Notes: a model not told the origin generated them from the sequence alone. Positions 34,105 through 40,141 are shown, counted from the stretch's first letter. The stretch: DNA of 64,000 nucleotides from Candidatus Buchananbacteria bacterium (GCA_903888345.1 CAISTG010000061.1:18512-82511), one strand, 5' to 3'. Numbers and translations: made by a program.

Positions 34105-34854
34105 ATGTCAAATTTACTTTGGTCATTACTAGCGGTAGCGCTTACTAGCTTGGTTTCTTTTTCGGGAGCCTTGGTTTTAGTCTTGAGCGATCGCTGGCTT
34201 AAAAGGTCTTTAATTTACTTTGTTTCTTTTGCCGCGGGCTCGATGATGGGTGCCGCCTTTTTTCATTTGTTGCCGGAAGCATTAAGTTCACCGGTTTATA
34301 ACTTGGCAATCTTTGCTTGGCTACTCTTTGGCTTTTGTTGTTTCTTTGTGATGGAGAAATTCTTGCGCTGGCGCCATTGTCATGAAGAGGGGTGCCAAGA
34401 GCATGAACATCTAAGTTGGATGAATATCTTTGGTAATAGTTTTCACAACATGACTGATGGCATGATTATCTTCGCTTCTTTTTATGCGGGTGGTCCGGTT
34501 CTGGGAATTCCCGTTACCTTGTCAATAATTTTGCATGAAGTGCCGCAAGAGTTAGGGGATTTTTCAATTCTGATTTATGCCGGCTTTAGCAAGTATAAGG
34601 CTCTATGGTATAATTTTCTTTCCGCCTTACCGGCATTCTTGGGCGTACTTATTGGATTGATTGCTATTAATTTTGATGCGAGATTTGATGTATTCTTGCT
34701 GCCTTTTGCGGCTGGAGGATTTCTGTATATTGCTGCCTCAGACTTGGTACCAGAATTACATAAAGATGAGCATCAGAAATCAGCTGTGGGAACTTTCTTA
34801 GTTTTTATCATCGCGTTAGTCTTTATGTATTTTGTTAAAGTTTTATTTGAATAA
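34105..34854 (+). CDS. ZIP-family divalent metal (Zn) transporter
   Basis: 'HEVPQELGDFSIL' ZIP signature with multiple TM helices. Confidence 0.8.
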   Translation: MSNLLWSLLAVALTSLVSFSGALVLVLSDRWLKRSLIYFVSFAAGSMMGAAFFHLLPEALSSPVYNLAIFAWLLFGFCCFFVMEKFLRWRHCHEEGCQEHEHLSWMNIFGNSFHNMTDGMIIFASFYAGGPVLGIPVTLSIILHEVPQELGDFSILIYAGFSKYKALWYNFLSALPAFLGVLIGLIAINFDARFDVFLLPFAAGGFLYIAASDLVPELHKDEHQKSAVGTFLVFIIALVFMYFVKVLFE

Positions 34855-34887
34855 TAAATTTAAAAATTAATAATCAGTTTATATATT

Positions 34888-35955
34888 ATGAAAAAGTTTT
34901 TATATCTGTTAGTTTCGTTGTTGGTGTTATGGCCCGCCCTAGCTTGGGCACAGTATTCTCCGGTCAGTAATGATCAAAATATTTTTTATTATTCTTCGAC
35001 CTGCGTTCATTGTCGCAAGGTAGAAGCTTTCTTTAAGGATTATGGTGTAGTAGAAAAATATAATATTATCAGTAAGGAAATTTCTCAGAATCCGACCAAT
35101 GCCAAAGAGTTATATGATTTGATGGTGTCACGTAATGTCGCTCCTAGCGATATTGGAGTGCCGTATCTTAATTTTGAAGGTCAGGGTTATTCGGGCGATG
35201 TGGATATTATTGCTTTCTTTAGTGAGAAGATGGGGATTACTTCCAGCACGCCGAAATTGACAACAAAATCGACAACCGGCCCACATCAACTAACGTTGTG
35301 GGCAGTCACCGTAGCCGCTTTAGCTGACTCGATTAATCCTTGCGCTTTCTCAGTTATTATTTTCTTAATGCTATCACTACTCGCGGTCGGTAATAAAAAA
35401 CGCGCTCTTAAAATAGGTCTAGTTTATATCGTAACGGTATATATTGTTTACTTGTTAGCCGGCTTGGGATTATTAGCCGCCTTGCAACAATTTGGGGCGA
35501 TCAGTAAATATATTATGTATGGAGCTGGCGCTTTGGCGATTATTGCTGGGCTCATAAATATTAAGGATTTCTTTTGGTATGGCAAGGGCTTTTCATTGGC
35601 TATTCCTGATGACAAAAAGCCGATCATGGAGAAGTATATTAAGTATGGCTCGGTGCCAGCAGCGATTATTTTGGGTTTCTTGGTAGCGTTATTCGAGTTG
35701 CCTTGCACTGGTGGTTTTTATTTAGCGATTCTGGCTTTACTGGCGCAAGAGACTTCATTTTGGAATGGCTTTGGCTATTTGGTATTTTATAATATTATTT
35801 TCGTTTTGCCATTATTTATTATTTTGATAATTATTTATAAAGGCGTTGATCCAAAGAAATTAGAAAAATTAAGAACCGCTAAACGTAAGTGGTTAAGACT
35901 GGTAATGGGATTGGTGCTAGTAGCACTGGGGTTGAGTTTAGTATTTTTATTTTAA
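34888..35955 (+). CDS. Signal peptide + thioredoxin/glutaredoxin-like domain fused to a CcdA/DsbD-type thiol-disulfide transporter
   Basis: N-terminal signal 'LLVLWPALAWAQ'. CxxC 'SSTCVHCRK'. TM domain with the two conserved cysteines 'SINPCAFSV' and 'ELPCTGGFY' typical of CcdA/DsbD. Confidence 0.65.
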   Translation: MKKFLYLLVSLLVLWPALAWAQYSPVSNDQNIFYYSSTCVHCRKVEAFFKDYGVVEKYNIISKEISQNPTNAKELYDLMVSRNVAPSDIGVPYLNFEGQGYSGDVDIIAFFSEKMGITSSTPKLTTKSTTGPHQLTLWAVTVAALADSINPCAFSVIIFLMLSLLAVGNKKRALKIGLVYIVTVYIVYLLAGLGLLAALQQFGAISKYIMYGAGALAIIAGLINIKDFFWYGKGFSLAIPDDKKPIMEKYIKYGSVPAAIILGFLVALFELPCTGGFYLAILALLAQETSFWNGFGYLVFYNIIFVLPLFIILIIIYKGVDPKKLEKLRTAKRKWLRLVMGLVLVALGLSLVFLF

Positions 35956-35958
35956 ACT

Positions 35959-36696
35959 ATGTCATTTTTAGATAAGATTTTAAAATCATCAGGCAACACT
36001 CTGTATTATCCGGGTTGTTTAACTAAATTTGTGGCCAAAGATGTTTTGGCCAATTATAAACAGCTACTCGAAATGTGTGGCGAAGATTTTGTGATGCTTG
36101 AAGACCGTGAAGTTTGCTGCGGCAGTCCAGTATTAAACGCTGGCTATCCGGAAGATTTTAAAAATTTAGCCGCCAAAAATTTACAGATTTTTAAAGAGTA
36201 TAATATCAAGCGCATTGTTACAGGTTGTCCTTCGTGTTTTGAAATGCTCAGCCATACTTATCGCGATACTTTAGGTAGTGAGTGGCAGATTGAAGTTGAG
36301 CACATGACGACCTATTTGCTGCGACAACTGCGCGCTGGAAAATTAAAACTACCGCGCTTAGAAATTAAGGCGACTTATCATGACCCTTGTCACTTAGGTC
36401 GCTATAGTGGAATTTATGAAGAGCCGCGTGATTTATTGAAGGAGTTAGGGGTTGATTTACGAGAAATGGTCCTTAATCGTGAGAATGCTTTTTGTTGTGG
36501 TGCCGGTGGTGGCGTGCAATCCAATAATAAAGAATTGGCGGAAACAATTGCCAGTGAACGTGCCGACCAAGCACTAGCGACGGAGGCGGAATATTTAATT
36601 ACCCCTTGCCCGATGTGTACCTATAACTTGCGTAATGGCGCGAAAGATAAAATTAAAGTAGTAGAATTTTCTGAAGCCTTATTGGGTAAAATTTAA
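35959..36696 (+). CDS. CCG-domain Fe-S oxidoreductase (LutA/GlpC/HdrB-like)
   Basis: Two cysteine-rich CCG motifs: 'EVCCGSPVLNAGYPEDF...GCPSC' and 'FCCGAGGGV...PCPMC'. Confidence 0.7.
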   Translation: MSFLDKILKSSGNTLYYPGCLTKFVAKDVLANYKQLLEMCGEDFVMLEDREVCCGSPVLNAGYPEDFKNLAAKNLQIFKEYNIKRIVTGCPSCFEMLSHTYRDTLGSEWQIEVEHMTTYLLRQLRAGKLKLPRLEIKATYHDPCHLGRYSGIYEEPRDLLKELGVDLREMVLNRENAFCCGAGGGVQSNNKELAETIASERADQALATEAEYLITPCPMCTYNLRNGAKDKIKVVEFSEALLGKI

Positions 36697-36699
36697 TTT

Positions 36700-37857
36700 A
36701 TGAATAAAGATTTTGTATATAACTATCTAGCTAAACGCGAAGCGGCCTTACCAAAAGCGCAGCAAGATCTTTTGGCTGAGGAAATTTTTAAAATCAAAAA
36801 AGCGGCCAATAGTGATTTGCGTGGCTTGGTGACTGAAGCACAAAAAAATCTAACTAAAAATGGCGTTCAGGTTTTTGTCGTTAAAGATTTAGCCGCGGCC
36901 AGTCTTAAGATTAAGGAATTAATTGGTTCGGTTGGTGGAGTTGTTAAGGCTAAGTCCAATACTTTAGATAAATTGGGCTTGAAGGAAATGCTTAATGAAC
37001 GCTTAACAGAAACTGATTTAGGCGCCTATATTGTCTCAAAAATCGGCAAAGACAGCGATCATCCGGTTTTGCCATCAATCGATTTGACGGCTGAGGAGGT
37101 CGCCTTAGGGTTTAACGCCAAGACCGGAAGCGAGTACCCACGCACCGCTAAGGCCTTAGTGGATGTCTTGAAACAAGAGATTAAGTCAAAGATTCTAACT
37201 GCTGAAGTTGGGCTGACCGGCGCTAATGCGGTCATGGCCGATGGGCAGATTATGTTGCTTGAAAATGAAGGTAATATTTCTTTGATTACGCGTTTACCAA
37301 AAACTCACATAGCTGTTTGTGGTGTCGAGAAGGTGATTGCTAATGCTAATGAAGCAGTTAAAGTTGCCAAGGCGGCCGCAGTTTGGGGTACGGGGCAAAG
37401 CTTTCCGACCTATGTTAGTTTTATTTCCGGTCCATCGAAGACGGCAGATATCGAAAATGAATTAGTGACTGGTGTGCAAGGTGCACAAGAAGTTATTTTA
37501 ATATTAGTTGAGGGAGAAGTTTATGAGCGCTTAGGTACTGATACTGAGAGTATGAATTATTGTATTCATTGTGGCGCTTGTTATAATTTATGCCCCACTT
37601 GGAATGCCGGAGCGGGCATGCCAAAAGTTGGCCAGAGAGACTCTTCATTTAATTGCACACTATGTCAGAACTGCACTTACAATTGCCCAGTCAAAATTGA
37701 ATGGCAAAATATTGTCAGAATTTATCGTGACAGGTATAATAAAGATGGACAGGAGACCGAACATAATGCGCAGATGATTAAAAATATTAAACAGTTTGGC
37801 AATCCCTTTGGTGAAAATGTTGACGGTAAAACTCCTGATGAATTATTTTGTTGCTAA
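36700..37857 (+). CDS. LutB-like iron-sulfur protein (LUD/DUF162 domain + 2x[4Fe-4S] ferredoxin motifs)
   Basis: C-terminal 'CIHCGACYNLCP' and 'CTLCQNCTYNCP'. N-terminal LUD-like domain. Confidence 0.65.
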   Translation: MNKDFVYNYLAKREAALPKAQQDLLAEEIFKIKKAANSDLRGLVTEAQKNLTKNGVQVFVVKDLAAASLKIKELIGSVGGVVKAKSNTLDKLGLKEMLNERLTETDLGAYIVSKIGKDSDHPVLPSIDLTAEEVALGFNAKTGSEYPRTAKALVDVLKQEIKSKILTAEVGLTGANAVMADGQIMLLENEGNISLITRLPKTHIAVCGVEKVIANANEAVKVAKAAAVWGTGQSFPTYVSFISGPSKTADIENELVTGVQGAQEVILILVEGEVYERLGTDTESMNYCIHCGACYNLCPTWNAGAGMPKVGQRDSSFNCTLCQNCTYNCPVKIEWQNIVRIYRDRYNKDGQETEHNAQMIKNIKQFGNPFGENVDGKTPDELFCC

Positions 37858-37882
37858 TATCAAATTTATTTATATAAAACAT

Positions 37883-38854
37883 ATGAAAAAAATAATTAGA
37901 ATTTTTACTAGTGGGGCCAGTAAACTTGGTGGTGTTATGGGTCGGTTGCGTGATAAGATTTTCCGTCGACAAGCGGAAGCTACAAGACGTGAAAAAATTA
38001 AACAAGGACTGTTAGTTGGTTTGAGTATTGCTTTGATAGCCGTGATTGTTTTAGCAGTTGCCTGGTTTGTTTGGTCTAAAATAACCAGTAATGGTGAATT
38101 GCAACAGAAAATCGCTAATCCAGTGGCTGAGGCCAAGGTCTATATCGTTACTAGTGGTAGTTGCGGTAATAAATGTTGGGACACACAATTGTTTTTGGAT
38201 GCTTTGACTCAACGTAATATTAAAATTGTCTCCAGTAAAAAAGCTTATGTTGGTTGGTGGCCATTTAGTTTTGGTAATGCTTTGGTCAAGAAATATAAAA
38301 TCACTAAAGTGCCAACTGTTGTGGTTGAATTTACCGGCAATAATAAACCAGACATTACGAGTTTCTTTAATGCCAATTTGGGAACGGTCACCAACGGTGT
38401 CTTTGTACTTGGTAAAATTTTGGCGCCATATTACGATTTAACCGCCAAGAAAATTACTGGCTTAGTCAGTGTCACTTATTTAAGTGATAAGACTTGTACT
38501 GATTGTTATGATGTTACTAAACATGATGTGGCGTTAAAGAATTTAGGAGTTGATACTAGTGGCGCCAAAACTGTGGACATTAGCAGTACTGCGGGCAAGT
38601 CATTGATTAGTAAATATAATATCACTAAAATTCCAACCGTTTTAGTCTCGGGCGAGGTTAGTGAGTATCAAGTGCTGGCACAAGCTTGGGCAGATGTCGG
38701 TATTGTCGCAACTGATGGCACTTATATTTTCACTAATGTTGATTTAATGGACGGTTCTTATAAGGATTTGACGACCGGAAAAATTATTAAGACTGATCCA
38801 GCTAAAGCGGTTCCGGCAACTTCAGCCGTTCCTGTTACTCCCACAAAAAAATAA
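37883..38854 (+). CDS. Membrane-anchored protein with two thioredoxin-fold repeats (extracytoplasmic)
   Basis: Start moved to the ATG at 37883, after the LutB-like stop. TM helix 'LLVGLSIALIAVIVLAVAWFVW'. Repeat 1 'SGSCGNKCW...ITKVPTVVVEF' and repeat 2 'DKTCTDCYD...ITKIPTVLVSGE' each carry a CxxC/CxxxC plus a cis-Pro-like motif. Confidence 0.5.
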   Translation: MKKIIRIFTSGASKLGGVMGRLRDKIFRRQAEATRREKIKQGLLVGLSIALIAVIVLAVAWFVWSKITSNGELQQKIANPVAEAKVYIVTSGSCGNKCWDTQLFLDALTQRNIKIVSSKKAYVGWWPFSFGNALVKKYKITKVPTVVVEFTGNNKPDITSFFNANLGTVTNGVFVLGKILAPYYDLTAKKITGLVSVTYLSDKTCTDCYDVTKHDVALKNLGVDTSGAKTVDISSTAGKSLISKYNITKIPTVLVSGEVSEYQVLAQAWADVGIVATDGTYIFTNVDLMDGSYKDLTTGKIIKTDPAKAVPATSAVPVTPTKK

Positions 38855-38872
38855 AAAATTATCTTTATAAAA

Positions 38873-38900
38873 ATCCCGCTCGGTCGAGCGGGATTTTTTT
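38873..38900. terminator. Bidirectional intrinsic terminator
   Basis: A-run, then TCCCGCTCG-gt-CGAGCGGGA, then T7, between convergent genes. Confidence 0.75.
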
Positions 38901-38907
38901 GATGTTG

Positions 38908-39549
38908 TTATTTTCCTTCTAATTCTAGCTTGAAAGCGGCCAGAAAGTCTTTCAAGAATGCGGTTCGTCTGGCGGCTATTTCTTTGGCGGTGTTGGTGTG
39001 CATGCGATCTCCAACTTTAAGTAAGCGTTCATAAAATAAGTCCAAAGCATTTTGGGAGGCGTCGGGCAGACGGGCTTCACAAAAAGGATCAGTTGAATTG
39101 TAAAATGGCCGTTTCATTTGGCCAGTAGAGGAGTAGGTTCGCATAATCGAAATAGCACCGGTTGCTTCTAGACCATCAGCGTCTTGTAGTATCTTTGACT
39201 CTAGTAACTCAGGCAGAATACCCTTACTGAAAGAGCACTCAATGATGCAAGTCTTAATAGCTTCAATTTTTTCTTTATTAAAATCATAGAGGTCATTTAG
39301 GATTTTTTCGGCCTCCGCAGCACTATCGGCTTGTGACTTAAACCTATCGGGGTGGTCTTTGGGATACACTATCAAATCGTGAAATAGTGCGGCTGGTATA
39401 ATTATTTCTAAATCACCACCCTCAAGACTGGCAATTCTTTCGGCGTTCGCCAGGACTCTAGCGGCATGTTCAAAATCATGAGAAACATCTTGACTAGAAA
39501 TCTTATCGCGAGCAATTTTTATTAGTTGATTTTTTAATTCACTGTCCAT
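38908..39549 (-). CDS. HD-domain phosphohydrolase
   Basis: 'HDFEHAARV' and 'ALFHDLIVYP' H..HD..D metal-binding motifs. Start trimmed to the ATG (MDSELKN) at 39549 to avoid overlap with maf. Confidence 0.65.
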   Translation of the reverse strand: MDSELKNQLIKIARDKISSQDVSHDFEHAARVLANAERIASLEGGDLEIIIPAALFHDLIVYPKDHPDRFKSQADSAAEAEKILNDLYDFNKEKIEAIKTCIIECSFSKGILPELLESKILQDADGLEATGAISIMRTYSSTGQMKRPFYNSTDPFCEARLPDASQNALDLFYERLLKVGDRMHTNTAKEIAARRTAFLKDFLAAFKLELEGK

Positions 39550-39562
39550 AAGCCAGCTAATA

Positions 39563-40141
39563 TTAATTAAGAATCTTAATACCGAACTTTTTGAGTGTTT
39601 CTGATAATACAAATAGGGGTAGACCGACGACGTTGAAGAAGTCGCCGTCGATTTTCTTGATAATGACCGCACCCAGTTCTTGAATGCCGAAGGCGCCAGC
39701 CTTGTCCAGTGGCTCGCCAGTTTTAATGTAACCGGAAATTTCTTGATCGGATAGTTTTTTGATATAAACTTTTGTTTCGACAGCCTGAGAAATTTTTCTT
39801 CCGCTGCTAGTGTCGATAACTGTTAATCCCGAGATTACTGATACCGCTTTGCCGCTAATCTGCTTAAGCATTTTTTTTGCAGTTTCTTTGGTGTGTGGCT
39901 TGCCTAATAGTTTATCGTTAAGGGCGACAAAAGTGTCGGCGGCAATAATGATATGATTGGGATATTTTTTGACAACCGCCAGAGCTTTGCCAGTGGATAA
40001 TGTTTTCGCTAACTGTAATGGCTTTAGCTTGAGCGTCATGTCTTCTTCATAATCGCTGCTAACTGCAGTGAACTTAAGATTAAGTTTCTCCATTAACTCC
40101 TTGCGGCGAGGTGAGGTGGAGGCGAGAATTATTTGTTTCAT
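39563..40141 (-). CDS. maf: Maf-like nucleoside triphosphate pyrophosphatase
   Basis: 'IILASTSPRRKELMEKLNL' Maf signature. Confidence 0.85.
   Translation of the reverse strand: MKQIILASTSPRRKELMEKLNLKFTAVSSDYEEDMTLKLKPLQLAKTLSTGKALAVVKKYPNHIIIAADTFVALNDKLLGKPHTKETAKKMLKQISGKAVSVISGLTVIDTSSGRKISQAVETKVYIKKLSDQEISGYIKTGEPLDKAGAFGIQELGAVIIKKIDGDFFNVVGLPLFVLSETLKKFGIKILN

Follow-up and report, generated by a model that had tools for sequence, protein, structure and literature searches.

In the CcdA/DsbD/ScsB pathway, electrons pass from thioredoxin to a membrane cysteine pair and on to a periplasmic thioredoxin-like protein. LUD-domain and GlcD-like dehydrogenases both come from known L-/D-lactate/glycolate systems, where they have Fe-S and CCG partners (PMC3949148; also the NCBIfam matches to LdhH and GlcF). 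In the locus analyzed here, unlike the first of these systems, a CcdA-like gene (A) has neither thioredoxin nor thioredoxin reductase beside it but an HdrBC-like Fe-S pair and a 2-hydroxyacid dehydrogenase. Five genes with open reading frames at the following coordinates lie on one strand of the window, by which we mean the whole 64 kb stretch of Candidatus Buchananbacteria DNA that was analyzed:

34105–34854, + strand: ZIP-family metal transporter (Pfam Zip, E = 1.1e-38)
34888–35955, + strand: gene A, CcdA-like transporter with a glutaredoxin-like domain (Pfam, motifs, homologue alignment)
35002–35013, + strand: codons of the outer CVHC redox motif of gene A (CPHC in most homologues)
35959–36696, + strand: gene B, HdrB/LutA-like CCG protein (Pfam CCG, E = 2.7e-39)
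36700–37857, + strand: gene C, LUD domain with 2x[4Fe-4S] (LUD_dom, E = 6.5e-41; Fer4 families)
37849–37854, + strand: codons of the C-terminal Cys-Cys of the Fe-S module in gene C (invariant in homologues)
37883–38854, + strand: gene D, anchored double thioredoxin-fold protein (domains, motifs)
38869–38898, + strand: intrinsic-terminator-like hairpin (13-bp stem, 6 GC pairs, T-run)

The gaps ZIP–A, A–B, B–C and C–D measure 33, 3, 3 and 25 bp, in agreement with the tight packing of A–D (3 to 25 bp) and the ZIP gene 33 bp upstream that were described in an earlier, sequence-only reading of this DNA. The hairpin, with an A-run on its opposite side, lies between D and a convergent HD-domain gene and probably closes the transcription unit. 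The remaining terminator-like matches from ZIP to D are all weak and within coding sequence, and no convincing terminator was found between ZIP and A; ZIP is probably co-transcribed with A, as the sequence-only reading had suggested. A phmmer search of the window (64 kb; E ≤ 1) gave no ORF for a LUD-only protein (LutC), TrxA or TrxB. That reading knew of no characterized system with such an arrangement, and no published description of one was found in the literature.

Gene A is CcdA-like by motif and clan

The 355-aa product of gene A starts with a signal peptide (aa 1–22; hydrophobic N-terminus, AWA/Q cleavage-type site), followed by an extracytoplasmic glutaredoxin-like domain (aa ~30–116; CVHC, Cys39/Cys42; cis-Pro92), a flexible linker and a 6-TM CcdA-like domain. 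The protein contains four cysteines and no more, each of them conserved in 19/19 diverse homologues: the CVHC pair plus Cys152 (NPC, TM1) and Cys273 (LPCTGG, TM4), the latter two both held in PC motifs. Loop charges indicate an N-out topology: loops 1/3/5 carry 3/6/5 lysines and arginines compared with 0 in loops 2/4. A six-helix membrane domain with one essential PC-motif cysteine each in TM1 and TM4 is found in CcdA/DsbD/ScsB, and the fused N-out extracytoplasmic CxxC domain of the thioredoxin superfamily is like that of DsbD-gamma or ScsB fusions. In contrast to these proteins, the membrane domain of A belongs to a divergent branch: the top Pfam match is PF11139 SfLAP (47 bits, over cut-off), and PF02683 DsbD_TM reached only 21.5 bits, under its cut-off of 27.1. 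In hhalign, both membrane cysteines pair with the two cysteines of a CcdA of the canonical type from CPR (E = 1.2e-3, probability 19.5%). We class the domain as CcdA-like by motif and clan, not by a passing Pfam DsbD match, so that of the earlier description of A the signal peptide and the CVHC glutaredoxin-like domain hold as given and the CcdA/DsbD identity holds on motif and clan, short of the Pfam threshold. Fold searches with the membrane domain gave no CcdA match; together with the DsbD_TM score this speaks against the mechanism proposed below.

Genes B and C resemble, and differ from, Hdr and lactate-utilization proteins

Gene B carries two full CCG motifs (CX32-34CCX35-36CXXC; Cys20/53/54/90/93 and Cys144/179/180/217/220), and by sequence its product is a cytoplasmic protein that is, as had been proposed, HdrB/LutA-like. 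It is similar to LutA/YkgE, which also has two CCG domains (26% identity, E = 2e-18), of LutABC/LldEFG (Bacillus subtilis, Shewanella, E. coli YkgEFG). With HdrBC/HdrDE, DsrMK-DsrC and TfrAB it shares the two full CCG motifs, an HdrC-like di-cluster ferredoxin partner and, by expectation, a chemistry of Fe-S-mediated disulfide cleavage or formation. The top NCBIfam match is TfrB of thiol:fumarate reductase (E = 2.7e-47). Unlike Hdr, B scores 48 against an equivalog cut-off of 345 for TIGR03288, and a CoM/CoB or DsrC system would be unexpected in CPR and DPANN organisms; relative to Hdr/Dsr/Tfr, the electron source here would be a hydroxyacid dehydrogenase, and the putative substrate an intramolecular vicinal Cys-Cys, then a membrane protein. 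The best PDB match is mycobacterial EtfD (E = 9e-28; HdrB, 1.6e-11 to 2.4e-10). EtfD feeds the respiratory chain and CCG proteins do not always handle disulfides, an observation against our main reading; disulfide reduction is likewise not known for LutA, GlpC or GlcF.

Gene C encodes a LUD domain (aa 45–270), an HdrC-like 2x[4Fe-4S] domain (aa 286–333) with two CxxCxxCxxxCP motifs, a helical extension with GNPFG and a terminal Cys384-Cys385, which bears out its description as LutB-like with two 4Fe-4S motifs. Its Fe-S profile matches HdrC (5odc_C, E = 2.2e-11), and it aligns with the LUD + 2x[4Fe-4S] part of LutB/YkgF (28% identity, E = 5e-43). Among NCBIfam models, LdhH (E = 1.3e-59) and LutB (E = 5.8e-53) both match far under cut-off. 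Within Desulfovibrio LdhH (LdhH/LdhL), C corresponds to positions 21–394 and B to positions 465–700 (E = 1.5e-40), and fused LdhH-like proteins of 620–740 aa make up many of the closest relatives beyond the Cys-Cys clade. In contrast to LdhH, the protein is split here, the order is inverted (CCG first), a Cys-Cys tail is added, the scores are 202 and 139 against an equivalog cut-off of 800, and the LutC-like small subunit of LdhH/LdhL is absent. LutABC differs likewise: TIGR00273 gives 180, its cut-off being 445, C has no Pfam match to the DUF3390-type LutB C-terminal domain and ends in GNPFG-x-L[FY]CC, and the CCG/LUD pair is tied by gene linkage to a CcdA-like gene. LutC was found neither in the window nor in the LUD-type loci whose C genes the YkgG probe matched. 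The host lineage is also generally held to lack a respiratory chain, in contrast to the setting of LutABC. The CCG/LUD pair is not a standard LutABC, in support of the earlier reading.

A terminal Cys-Cys was present in 203/203 Fe-S modules (120/120 database homologues and 83/83 complete proteins from fetched loci, the latter LUD-fused, GlcD-fused or stand-alone). Since none of the 8 ferredoxin and 10 CCG cysteines is missing, cluster ligation does not call for the tail, and we propose that it is redox-active. High-molecular-weight thioredoxin reductases, with the tail GCUG in mammals and SCCS in Drosophila, and MerA, with Cys-Cys, use their tails to shuttle electrons or metal between a buried center and an external partner. 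The likeness of the Fe-S module to MerA and high-molecular-weight thioredoxin reductase, a conserved adjacent cysteine pair at the extreme C-terminus, is one of analogy only, its fold and cofactors being unrelated. DsrC with DsrK provides a precedent for a flexible C-terminal cysteine arm as substrate.

The A–B–Fe-S linkage is conserved in bacteria and archaea

B and an Fe-S module accompanied A in 39 of 80 species-level A-family loci, or 39/72 assessable loci after removal of 8 contig-end cases; these belong to Patescibacteria, DPANN archaea and Heimdall- and Altiarchaeota-labelled genomes. B and C were not nearby in ~33 of the 72, so A does not require them, a point against the mechanism favored below. 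The linkage is strand-locked across two domains of life: in 53/53 loci A came first and shared its strand with B, with a gap of ≤150 bp in 39 and few-base gaps or overlaps in many. CPR and Woesearchaeota loci kept the A-B-LUD/FeS arrangement where identity in A was 61%, 47% and 44%, and where the gene order was permuted to C-A-B (L032, L047, L057) the linkage persisted. When the search was run in reverse, from the Fe-S tail, both A and B were found in 12/12 loci that reach at least 5 kb upstream; where at least 2.4 kb was available, 18/19 had B. A neighbor census found no universally conserved additional gene; what is conserved as a core is A, B and the Fe-S module, the dehydrogenase being of the LUD or the GlcD-like kind. 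Conservation of the pairing in relatives, which the sequence-only reading had set as one of its tests, was found in bacteria and archaea and in both search directions. That the fetched loci are near-identical copies of one mobile element is excluded by identities of 38–72% and differing flanks.

It is extremely improbable that B and C are an ordinary cytoplasmic lactate utilization enzyme, A an ordinary thioredoxin-fed CcdA, and their adjacency an accident of a compact genome. CPR genomes are gene-dense, and in this DNA the genes lie mostly on one strand, so that short gaps by themselves prove little, and about half of the A loci are without B and C. However, the same-strand A-then-B order spans bacterial and archaeal phyla with otherwise unrelated flanks, every sufficiently long reverse-search locus had both genes, the linkage survives both a dehydrogenase swap and the C-A-B permutation, and LutC was found nowhere among the loci probed. 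The pairing is not due to chance.

The proposed electron donor varies while the CCG/CcdA part is constant

The dehydrogenase in the 39 loci is of the LUD-FeS type in 18 and GlcD-like in 21. The GlcD-like enzyme (FAD_binding_4, 5e-35, plus FAD-oxidase_C) comes with a small 2x[4Fe-4S] protein, and one locus (L075) has a GlcD-FeS fusion; the DPANN variant, made up of GlcD-like enzyme, ferredoxin and CCG protein, mirrors the GlcD + GlcF of Dld-II/GlcDF. A constant CCG/CcdA part with a variable donor fits electron flow from a hydroxyacid to A. In some A-only loci, trxB lies within two genes of A (L042, L069, L066, L039) or trxA directly downstream (L077), as would suit a reductive transporter that is fed from the cytoplasm and can draw on different donors. 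Other neighbors in A-only loci are CopA, Lgt and a DsbA-like CPYC protein, a context resembling the reductive ScsB/ScsC arrangement; nearby Trx-fold partners, here gene D, are a further likeness to CcdA/DsbD/ScsB. The suggestion that the module replaces thioredoxin reductase gains indirect support from trxB and trxA standing beside A in A-only loci, in the place that B and C have elsewhere, the absence of trxB itself applying to the 64 kb window.

The module could also be a lactate:thioredoxin (or low-molecular-weight disulfide) reductase whose soluble carrier reduces A in the classical way, with the Cys-Cys tail having a structural part or binding a cluster or substrate. Thioredoxin does have iron-sulfur disulfide reductases, e.g. 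ferredoxin:thioredoxin reductase, and A-only loci imply that A is workable without adjacent B and C. In L041 and L070, a trxA with canonical WCGPC directly follows the small Fe-S gene at the cluster end, so thioredoxin may still take part. We nevertheless regard such indirect coupling as distinctly unlikely: TrxA matched only 5 times in 80 loci (within 7 kb), most clusters being without a thioredoxin gene, the strict A-then-B order with tiny gaps or overlaps points to direct partnership, and the invariance of the terminal Cys-Cys demands a strong functional reason.

ZIP and D are clade-restricted accessory genes

Gene D encodes an N-in membrane anchor and two extracytoplasmic thioredoxin-fold domains with CGNKC (Cys94/98) and CTDC (Cys205/208). 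The anchored two-domain architecture is as first read; only the second motif is CxxC, the first being CxxxC. D is downstream of C in L001, L002 and L005–L010 only, and is likely a partner or client of A's outer domain. In L005–L010, as in the window, ZIP is the gene just upstream of A; in a distant Nanoarchaeia locus (L037) it adjoins B. ZIP and D are confined to the close clade, outside the conserved core.

These ZIP positions could suggest that the outward-facing thiols of A and D, instead of reducing protein disulfides in general, reduce, bind or buffer Cu, Fe or Zn to aid or oppose its uptake, in connection with the ZIP importer or CopA, for which the Scs copper-tolerance system is a precedent; CopA precedes a split Grx/A pair in L053, L059, L064 and L049, and an ArsR-like regulator precedes A in L020. 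Such a role is highly unlikely as the explanation of the cluster, since most cluster loci lack metal genes, the census gave no universal extra gene, and the metal genes vary by clade (importer versus exporter). It also bears on what the relay would serve rather than on the relay itself, and overlaps with the main explanation.

Proposed mechanism and direction of electron flow

We favor, as just on the probable side, a mechanism in which a 2-hydroxyacid (lactate-type) dehydrogenase with an HdrBC-like core feeds the CcdA-like relay A, replacing NADPH, thioredoxin reductase and thioredoxin. A substrate, presumably lactate, would be oxidized at the LUD domain, or by the GlcD-like flavoprotein in other lineages, and electrons would reach the pair of CCG clusters in B by way of the two [4Fe-4S] clusters. 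The CCG clusters would then reduce a disulfide, most likely that of the C-terminal Cys-Cys tail of the Fe-S module, which may serve as a swinging arm and, with B and C in physical contact with A, reduce Cys152/Cys273 in the CcdA-like membrane domain. From there electrons would move outward to A's own extracytoplasmic CVHC domain and to envelope proteins, including the co-encoded D in this clade. The proposed acceptor is thus a membrane cysteine relay, unlike the quinone or DsrC of LdhH/GlcDF. With a potential of ~-190 mV, the pyruvate/lactate couple is able to supply electrons to a high-potential domain of the CPHC/CGHC type (DsbA, ~-120 mV; PDI, ~-180 mV). The DsbD-like membrane cysteine pair lies at ~-240 mV in E. 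coli, and lactate would be a weak donor for it, which is an observation against this mechanism.

Flow may instead be inverse or two-way, the system being a quinone-independent analogue of DsbB/VKOR in which envelope thiols pass electrons via CPHC, A and CCG/Fe-S to pyruvate or another 2-oxoacid, or in which the outer domain is poised at the lactate/pyruvate potential. The outer motif, DsbA-like in contrast to CcdA/DsbD/ScsB, is CPHC in 69 and CSHC in 15 of 120 A homologues and CVHC here, and a histidine before the second cysteine is a DsbA/PDI signature. A distant Woesearchaeota homologue of the D family (L086) lies two genes from a VKOR homologue, which together with the outer motif fits an oxidizing role and goes against the favored mechanism. 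Falkowbacteria-like loci hold a DsbA-like protein near A, and TfrB is a CCG enzyme that oxidizes thiols and reduces an organic acid. A also resembles VKOR-Trx fusions and DsbB/DsbA in joining a membrane redox domain to an extracytoplasmic Trx-fold CxxC with a DsbA-like dipeptide (CPHC); unlike VKOR/DsbB, it has no quinone-binding fold, its cysteines lie mid-TM1 and mid-TM4 as in CcdA, and its cytoplasmic partner is an Fe-S enzyme. We consider this direction unlikely, if worth serious attention. Electron transfer from a CPHC domain (~-120 to -180 mV) to pyruvate (-190 mV) is unfavorable, electron transport is outward in all characterized DsbD/CcdA/ScsB relatives, and trxB or trxA takes the place of B/C beside A in A-only loci. 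The D motifs (CTDC; CPEC/CAEC in homologues) have an acidic residue, like the reductase-type ResA, and LUD/Lut-type and GlcD-type enzymes are known to oxidize lactate or glycolate (PMC3924224). If true, inverse flow would provide disulfide bond formation in anaerobes without quinones.

Under the favored mechanism, reductive flow from a 2-hydroxyacid to A, the cluster would be an apparently undescribed way to power protein disulfide chemistry outside the cell in many ultra-small bacteria and archaea.

Layout of the operon in the window

The window, from a Patescibacteria (CPR) genome, has a GC content of ~40% and carries nearly all of its genes on the + strand; the nearest named relatives of the region's proteins are 'Candidatus Buchananbacteria' or 'Patescibacteria group'. 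Five + strand open reading frames (ORFs) occupy positions 34105-38854, with intergenic gaps of 33, 3, 3 and 25 bp: a ZIP gene, A (a glutaredoxin-like CVHC domain joined to a CcdA-like membrane domain), B (an HdrB/LutA-like two-CCG protein), C (a LUD and 2x[4Fe-4S] protein ending in Cys384-Cys385) and D (an anchored double thioredoxin-fold protein). Features in this region were as follows.

34105-34854, +, ZIP gene (Pfam Zip, E = 1e-38)
35959-36696, +, B, two CCG domains, both motifs intact
36700-37857, +, C, LUD domain, then two CxxCxxCxxxCP motifs
38869-38898, hairpin with a 13-bp stem and a T-run, between the five ORFs and a convergent HD-domain gene

From ZIP to D, further terminator-like matches were few and weak, and all lay within coding sequence. 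Inspection of the ORFs and gaps, together with domain searches, bore out the sequence-only reading of this region with minor corrections. The region's best sigma-70-like match (37712-37740; TTGTCA-17-TATAAT, 11/12) falls within the 3' end of C, with the D start codon 143 nt further on, and may be an internal promoter for D. The listed GTG start of the HD-domain gene (38908-39672, -) gives a ~110 nt overlap with the - strand upstream gene (39563-40141, -); the real start is probably further downstream.

Gene A: CcdA-like membrane part and outer domain

In the AlphaFold model of A, six long helices follow residue 137, behind a low-confidence linker. Lys plus Arg counts were 3, 6 and 5 in loops 1, 3 and 5, and 0 in loops 2 and 4 and the C-terminus, indicating an N-out orientation. 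Model and loop charges together give A the six TM segments (3+3) and the external N-terminus of DsbD/CcdA proteins, and the charges place its thioredoxin-like domain outside the membrane, where the sequence-only reading had put it. Cys152 (NPC, TM1) and Cys273 (LPCTGG, TM4), each preceded by proline as in DsbD/CcdA, are invariant in 19 of 19 diverse homologues and line up with both cysteines of canonical CPR CcdA (hhalign); A has exactly four cysteines in total. The membrane part passed PF11139 (SfLAP/GAP) and fell below the cut-off of PF02683 (DsbD_TM). A formally falls short of the DsbD_TM Pfam family, yet has the family's defining cysteines and topology.

The outer domain of A, like gene D, has a thioredoxin-superfamily fold with a CxxC opening helix 1 and a cis-proline loop. 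Two Methanomassiliicoccales homologues of A (L054:5699-7669 and L078:4277-7672) consist of a thioredoxin domain, 3 to 8 fibronectin type III repeats and the membrane domain, and such a stalk under the thioredoxin domain fits an extracellular location of the outer domain of A. No CCG or Fe-S genes were found near these two homologues.

Genes B and C: an Fe-S/CCG module

The motifs of B, Cys20-x32-Cys53Cys54-x35-Cys90xxCys93 and Cys144-x34-Cys179Cys180-x36-Cys217xxCys220, reproduce twice the CX31-39CCX35-36CXXC pattern of HdrBC. Like LutA, B has the Pfam CCG domain in two stretches (E = 2.7e-39), and it is 26% identical to YkgE. Its best matches among solved structures were mycobacterial EtfD and HdrB (HdrB chains, 1.6e-11 to 1e-9). 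The Fe-S module profile matched HdrC (5odc_C, E = 2.2e-11, positions 2-95), as an HdrC-like partner should. B and C jointly span the fused Desulfovibrio-type LdhH, and both score far under every NCBIfam equivalog cut-off.

Three known enzymes do not describe the module. A standard LutABC was set aside for lack of LutC and of a DUF3390-type domain and for scores under cut-off: C has the LUD and Fe-S parts but scored 180.3 against the LutB model TIGR00273 (cut-off 444.8) and does not qualify as LutB, no DUF3390-type LutB C-terminal domain was detectable in it with Pfam, and its alignment with E. coli YkgF stops at the second cluster motif (YkgF residue 386/475). The claim that LutC is missing held, with no second LUD ORF in the 64 kb window and YkgG-probe matches in the fetched loci that were all the C gene. 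Methanogen-type Hdr was rejected on scores of 47.9 against 345 (TIGR03288), 19.4 against 450 (NF041780) and 17.5 against 160 (TIGR03290). With respect to LdhH/LdhL, the single fused large subunit is here divided between C and B, in inverted order, the small LUD subunit was not found, and C and B scored 202 and 139 against LdhH NF045670 (cut-off 800).

Linkage of A and B across genomes

Homologues of A gave 2158 matches among 8000 scored candidates, in CPR and DPANN archaea. Three loci checked individually, with identities of 61%, 47% and 44%, come from two CPR genomes and one Woesearchaeon, and all have the order A-CCG-LUD/Fe-S within otherwise unrelated surroundings. A collection with one genome per species contained 336 places with a confirmed relative of A; the genome loci analysed were the best 80 of these, that is, those most similar to A and not a random sample. 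Among them, 39 had B within 6 kb plus the Fe-S module, 33 had A only and 8 were cut by a contig end, so that, of the 72 sampled loci that could be assessed, about half have the full cluster. Wherever both genes occurred in the genome and metagenome sets, A lay ahead of B on the same strand (53/53 loci), with a gap of at most 150 bp in 39 of the 53. Three loci, L032, L047 and L057 (the last labelled Heimdallarchaeota), have the order C-A-B with the A-B link kept. A reverse search of metagenomes with the conserved tail of the Fe-S module (5-sequence alignment) recovered A and B in all 12 loci that extended 5 kb or more upstream, and B in 18 of the 19 that extended 2.4 kb or more. Chance adjacency is excluded by the conserved A-B order and by the reverse search, and the gene pairing first read from the window is a conserved one.

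Unrelated genes are inserted inside the cluster in L018, L035, L088, L100 and L008, with order and strand kept; these inserts reach up to 2-5 kb and include CTP synthase and a small ORF that by eye resembles nucleoside 2-deoxyribosyltransferase. A neighbour census of 52 cluster loci found no universally conserved further gene, for example Msr, peroxiredoxin or lactate permease.

Exchange of the dehydrogenase

The LUD domain is absent from 21 loci, mostly DPANN, where B is followed by a GlcD-like flavoprotein (FAD_binding_4, 5e-35; FAD-oxidase_C, 7e-11) and a small 2x[4Fe-4S] protein of 115-130 aa; in L075 (Altiarchaeota-labelled) these two parts are fused. The LUD/Lut and GlcD/GlcF types are the two known Fe-S/CCG-linked families of L-/D-lactate (or glycolate) dehydrogenases, and are often co-located in other organisms (PMC3924224; PMC3949148). 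Because the chassis of ferredoxin, CCG and CcdA-like protein stays constant while two unrelated hydroxyacid-oxidising modules replace each other on it, we take the dehydrogenase to be the variable electron entry and the CcdA-like protein the common exit; this module swap is the strongest argument for that assignment.

The Cys-Cys tail of the Fe-S module

The C-terminus of the Fe-S module reads ...MI-x-N-[IV]-x3-GNPFG-x8-10-L[FY]CC in every case. LUD-fused, GlcD-fused and stand-alone forms alike have the Cys-Cys end, which was present in 120/120 database homologues and in 83/83 complete proteins of the fetched loci. Among representatives at 50% clustering, Cys-Cys-tailed proteins made up 8 of the 10 top scorers and 16 of 150 overall, and many of the others were fused, LdhH-like proteins of 620-740 aa with CCG domains of their own and without the tail. 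In EtfD, a fused relative, GNPWG lies ~26 residues ahead of the first CCG strand, so the Cys-Cys tail should adjoin the first CCG domain of B. The cluster-ligating cysteines are complete without the tail. From its invariance, its expected place and the complete set of ligands we infer, and propose by analogy, that the vicinal Cys-Cys could be a redox-active arm. Cysteine arms have precedents in DsrC with DsrK and in the C-terminal SCCS/GCUG tails of large thioredoxin reductases. The tail is an additional feature of the system, beyond the new input module.

Electron donor and direction of flow

Gene context points to an HdrBC-like electron donor for A, and we lean slightly towards an outward reductive relay fed by a lactate-type dehydrogenase through B and C. 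Oxidative or bidirectional flow through the complex would agree with the DsbA/PDI-like outer motif of A (CPHC in 69/120 homologues), with thiol:fumarate reductase TfrB as the best NCBIfam match of B, and with a VKOR gene two genes from a distant D homologue. We consider such flow unlikely, since to our knowledge all characterised relatives of the membrane domain of A work outward (reducing), since oxidation is the known activity of LUD and GlcD enzymes, and since trxB or trxA stands beside A in A-only loci (A without B and the Fe-S module nearby). By textbook potentials, lactate/pyruvate (~-190 mV) could hold a PDI-like outer domain reduced; for a membrane cysteine pair like that of DsbD it would be marginal as a donor, so a reversible, poising role is conceivable.

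In favour of the outward relay, four A-only loci have trxB no more than two genes away from A, and a fifth has trxA directly downstream of A. The four trxB loci represent at least two independent lineages, several of them being phylogenetically related to each other. Thioredoxin-system genes near A or the cluster were as follows.

L042:8733-9692 (CPR3), trxB, within one or two genes of A
L069:8444-9388, trxB, within one or two genes of A
L066:5459-6415, trxB, within one or two genes of A
L039:3409-4383, trxB, within one or two genes of A
L077:3836-4129, trxA, beside A in an A-only locus
L041:10773-11057, thioredoxin, directly after the small Fe-S gene
L070:3837-4109, thioredoxin, directly after the small Fe-S gene

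Next to gene A, trxB or trxA was seen only in loci without CCG/Fe-S genes, where the classical donor thus holds the place of B and C. The remaining A-only loci have CopA, a CPHC glutaredoxin split from the A membrane domain that follows it, Lgt and a DsbA-like CPYC protein, and resemble the reductive Scs copper-tolerance arrangement. L041 and L070, where a thioredoxin gene immediately follows the cluster, would suit an indirect coupling of the module to A via thioredoxin, which we regard as quite improbable.

In A-only loci of Falkowbacteria-like CPR (L053:4139-9301, L059, L064, L049), a gene just upstream of a 225-aa A membrane domain encodes the outer CPHC glutaredoxin domain as an anchored protein in its own right; on either side of this split pair lie genes for a CopA-type P-type ATPase, Lgt and the DsbA-like CPYC protein.

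Accessory genes

It is in the close clade alone (L001, L002, L005-L010) that the core is joined by ZIP and D, with one ZIP exception in Nanoarchaeia. Throughout the close clade ZIP lies directly upstream of A (34105-34854 in the window; L005-L010), and in the exception, a distant Nanoarchaeia locus (L037:8838-9566, -), it is convergent and adjoins the CCG gene. ZIP, plus CopA and ArsR-like neighbours elsewhere, hints at a recurring metal link to the relay family. D-family proteins are widespread in CPR and DPANN, often with three thioredoxin-like domains, and for D itself a clade-specific role as client or partner of the outer domain of A seems the best reading. The D homologue found two genes away from a VKOR homologue is a three-domain protein of a Woesearchaeon (L086:8001-10948); a cupredoxin-like protein is encoded between the two, and glutaredoxin, ferredoxin and ETF genes are downstream.

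A ~155 aa protein is encoded immediately upstream of A in seven DPANN loci (L027, L030:6540-7004, L048, L071, L084, L094, L117). Two TM helices and an SCGCP motif are present in this protein, whose C-terminal part looks by eye like a winged-helix domain; it may serve the cluster as a redox-sensing regulator in the membrane. Another DPANN cluster (L020:10818-11931) is followed downstream by a second DsbD-family membrane protein of canonical appearance, which carries SPC and FCP motifs and is preceded by a secreted CYSC-motif protein; two different cysteine relays can thus be encoded side by side.

A possible envelope redox system of CPR and DPANN

Outside, the system resembles the DsbD/CcdA/ScsB reductive pathway; inside, it resembles an HdrBC or LdhH enzyme. 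All characterised DsbD/CcdA/ScsB pathways known to us run from NADPH through thioredoxin reductase to thioredoxin. We rate the electron-input module as what is new, the relay itself being of known type. Literature searches returned no description of a CcdA-like transporter linked to CCG, LUD or GlcD genes: the DsbD clusters covered in the eLife flavinylation survey are other ones, and DPANN genome papers mention Hdr or LDH genes with no tie to CcdA. Lut-like, GlcD-like and 'Hdr' genes have been reported repeatedly in CPR/DPANN surveys, where their current interpretation is lactate respiration or a methanogen-type Hdr, in organisms believed to have no respiratory chain. For LutABC-type enzymes, too, the electron acceptor has yet to be settled (PMC3924224).

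We raise, tentatively, the possibility that CPR and DPANN share an envelope redox system independent of thioredoxin reductase and quinones. An HdrBC-like Fe-S disulfide reductase would be fed by interchangeable L- or D-2-hydroxyacid dehydrogenase modules, and its built-in C-terminal vicinal Cys-Cys arm would exchange electrons directly with the CcdA-like membrane relay. The thiol-disulfide state of surface proteins would be tied in this way to the cytoplasmic lactate/pyruvate couple and, with either direction possible, disulfide bond formation could also be served in cells without quinones.

A relay fed by a fermentation-product dehydrogenase through CCG-type clusters would supply envelope redox chemistry by a new route, would give the Lut-like, GlcD-like and 'Hdr' genes of the CPR/DPANN surveys a concrete function, and would be an unusually direct case of a CCG-domain enzyme and its identifiable protein disulfide substrate in one operon. 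Given the 336 relatives of A and the frequency of the full cluster among the assessable loci, the system may play a major part in how episymbiotic ultra-small cells maintain their surface proteins.
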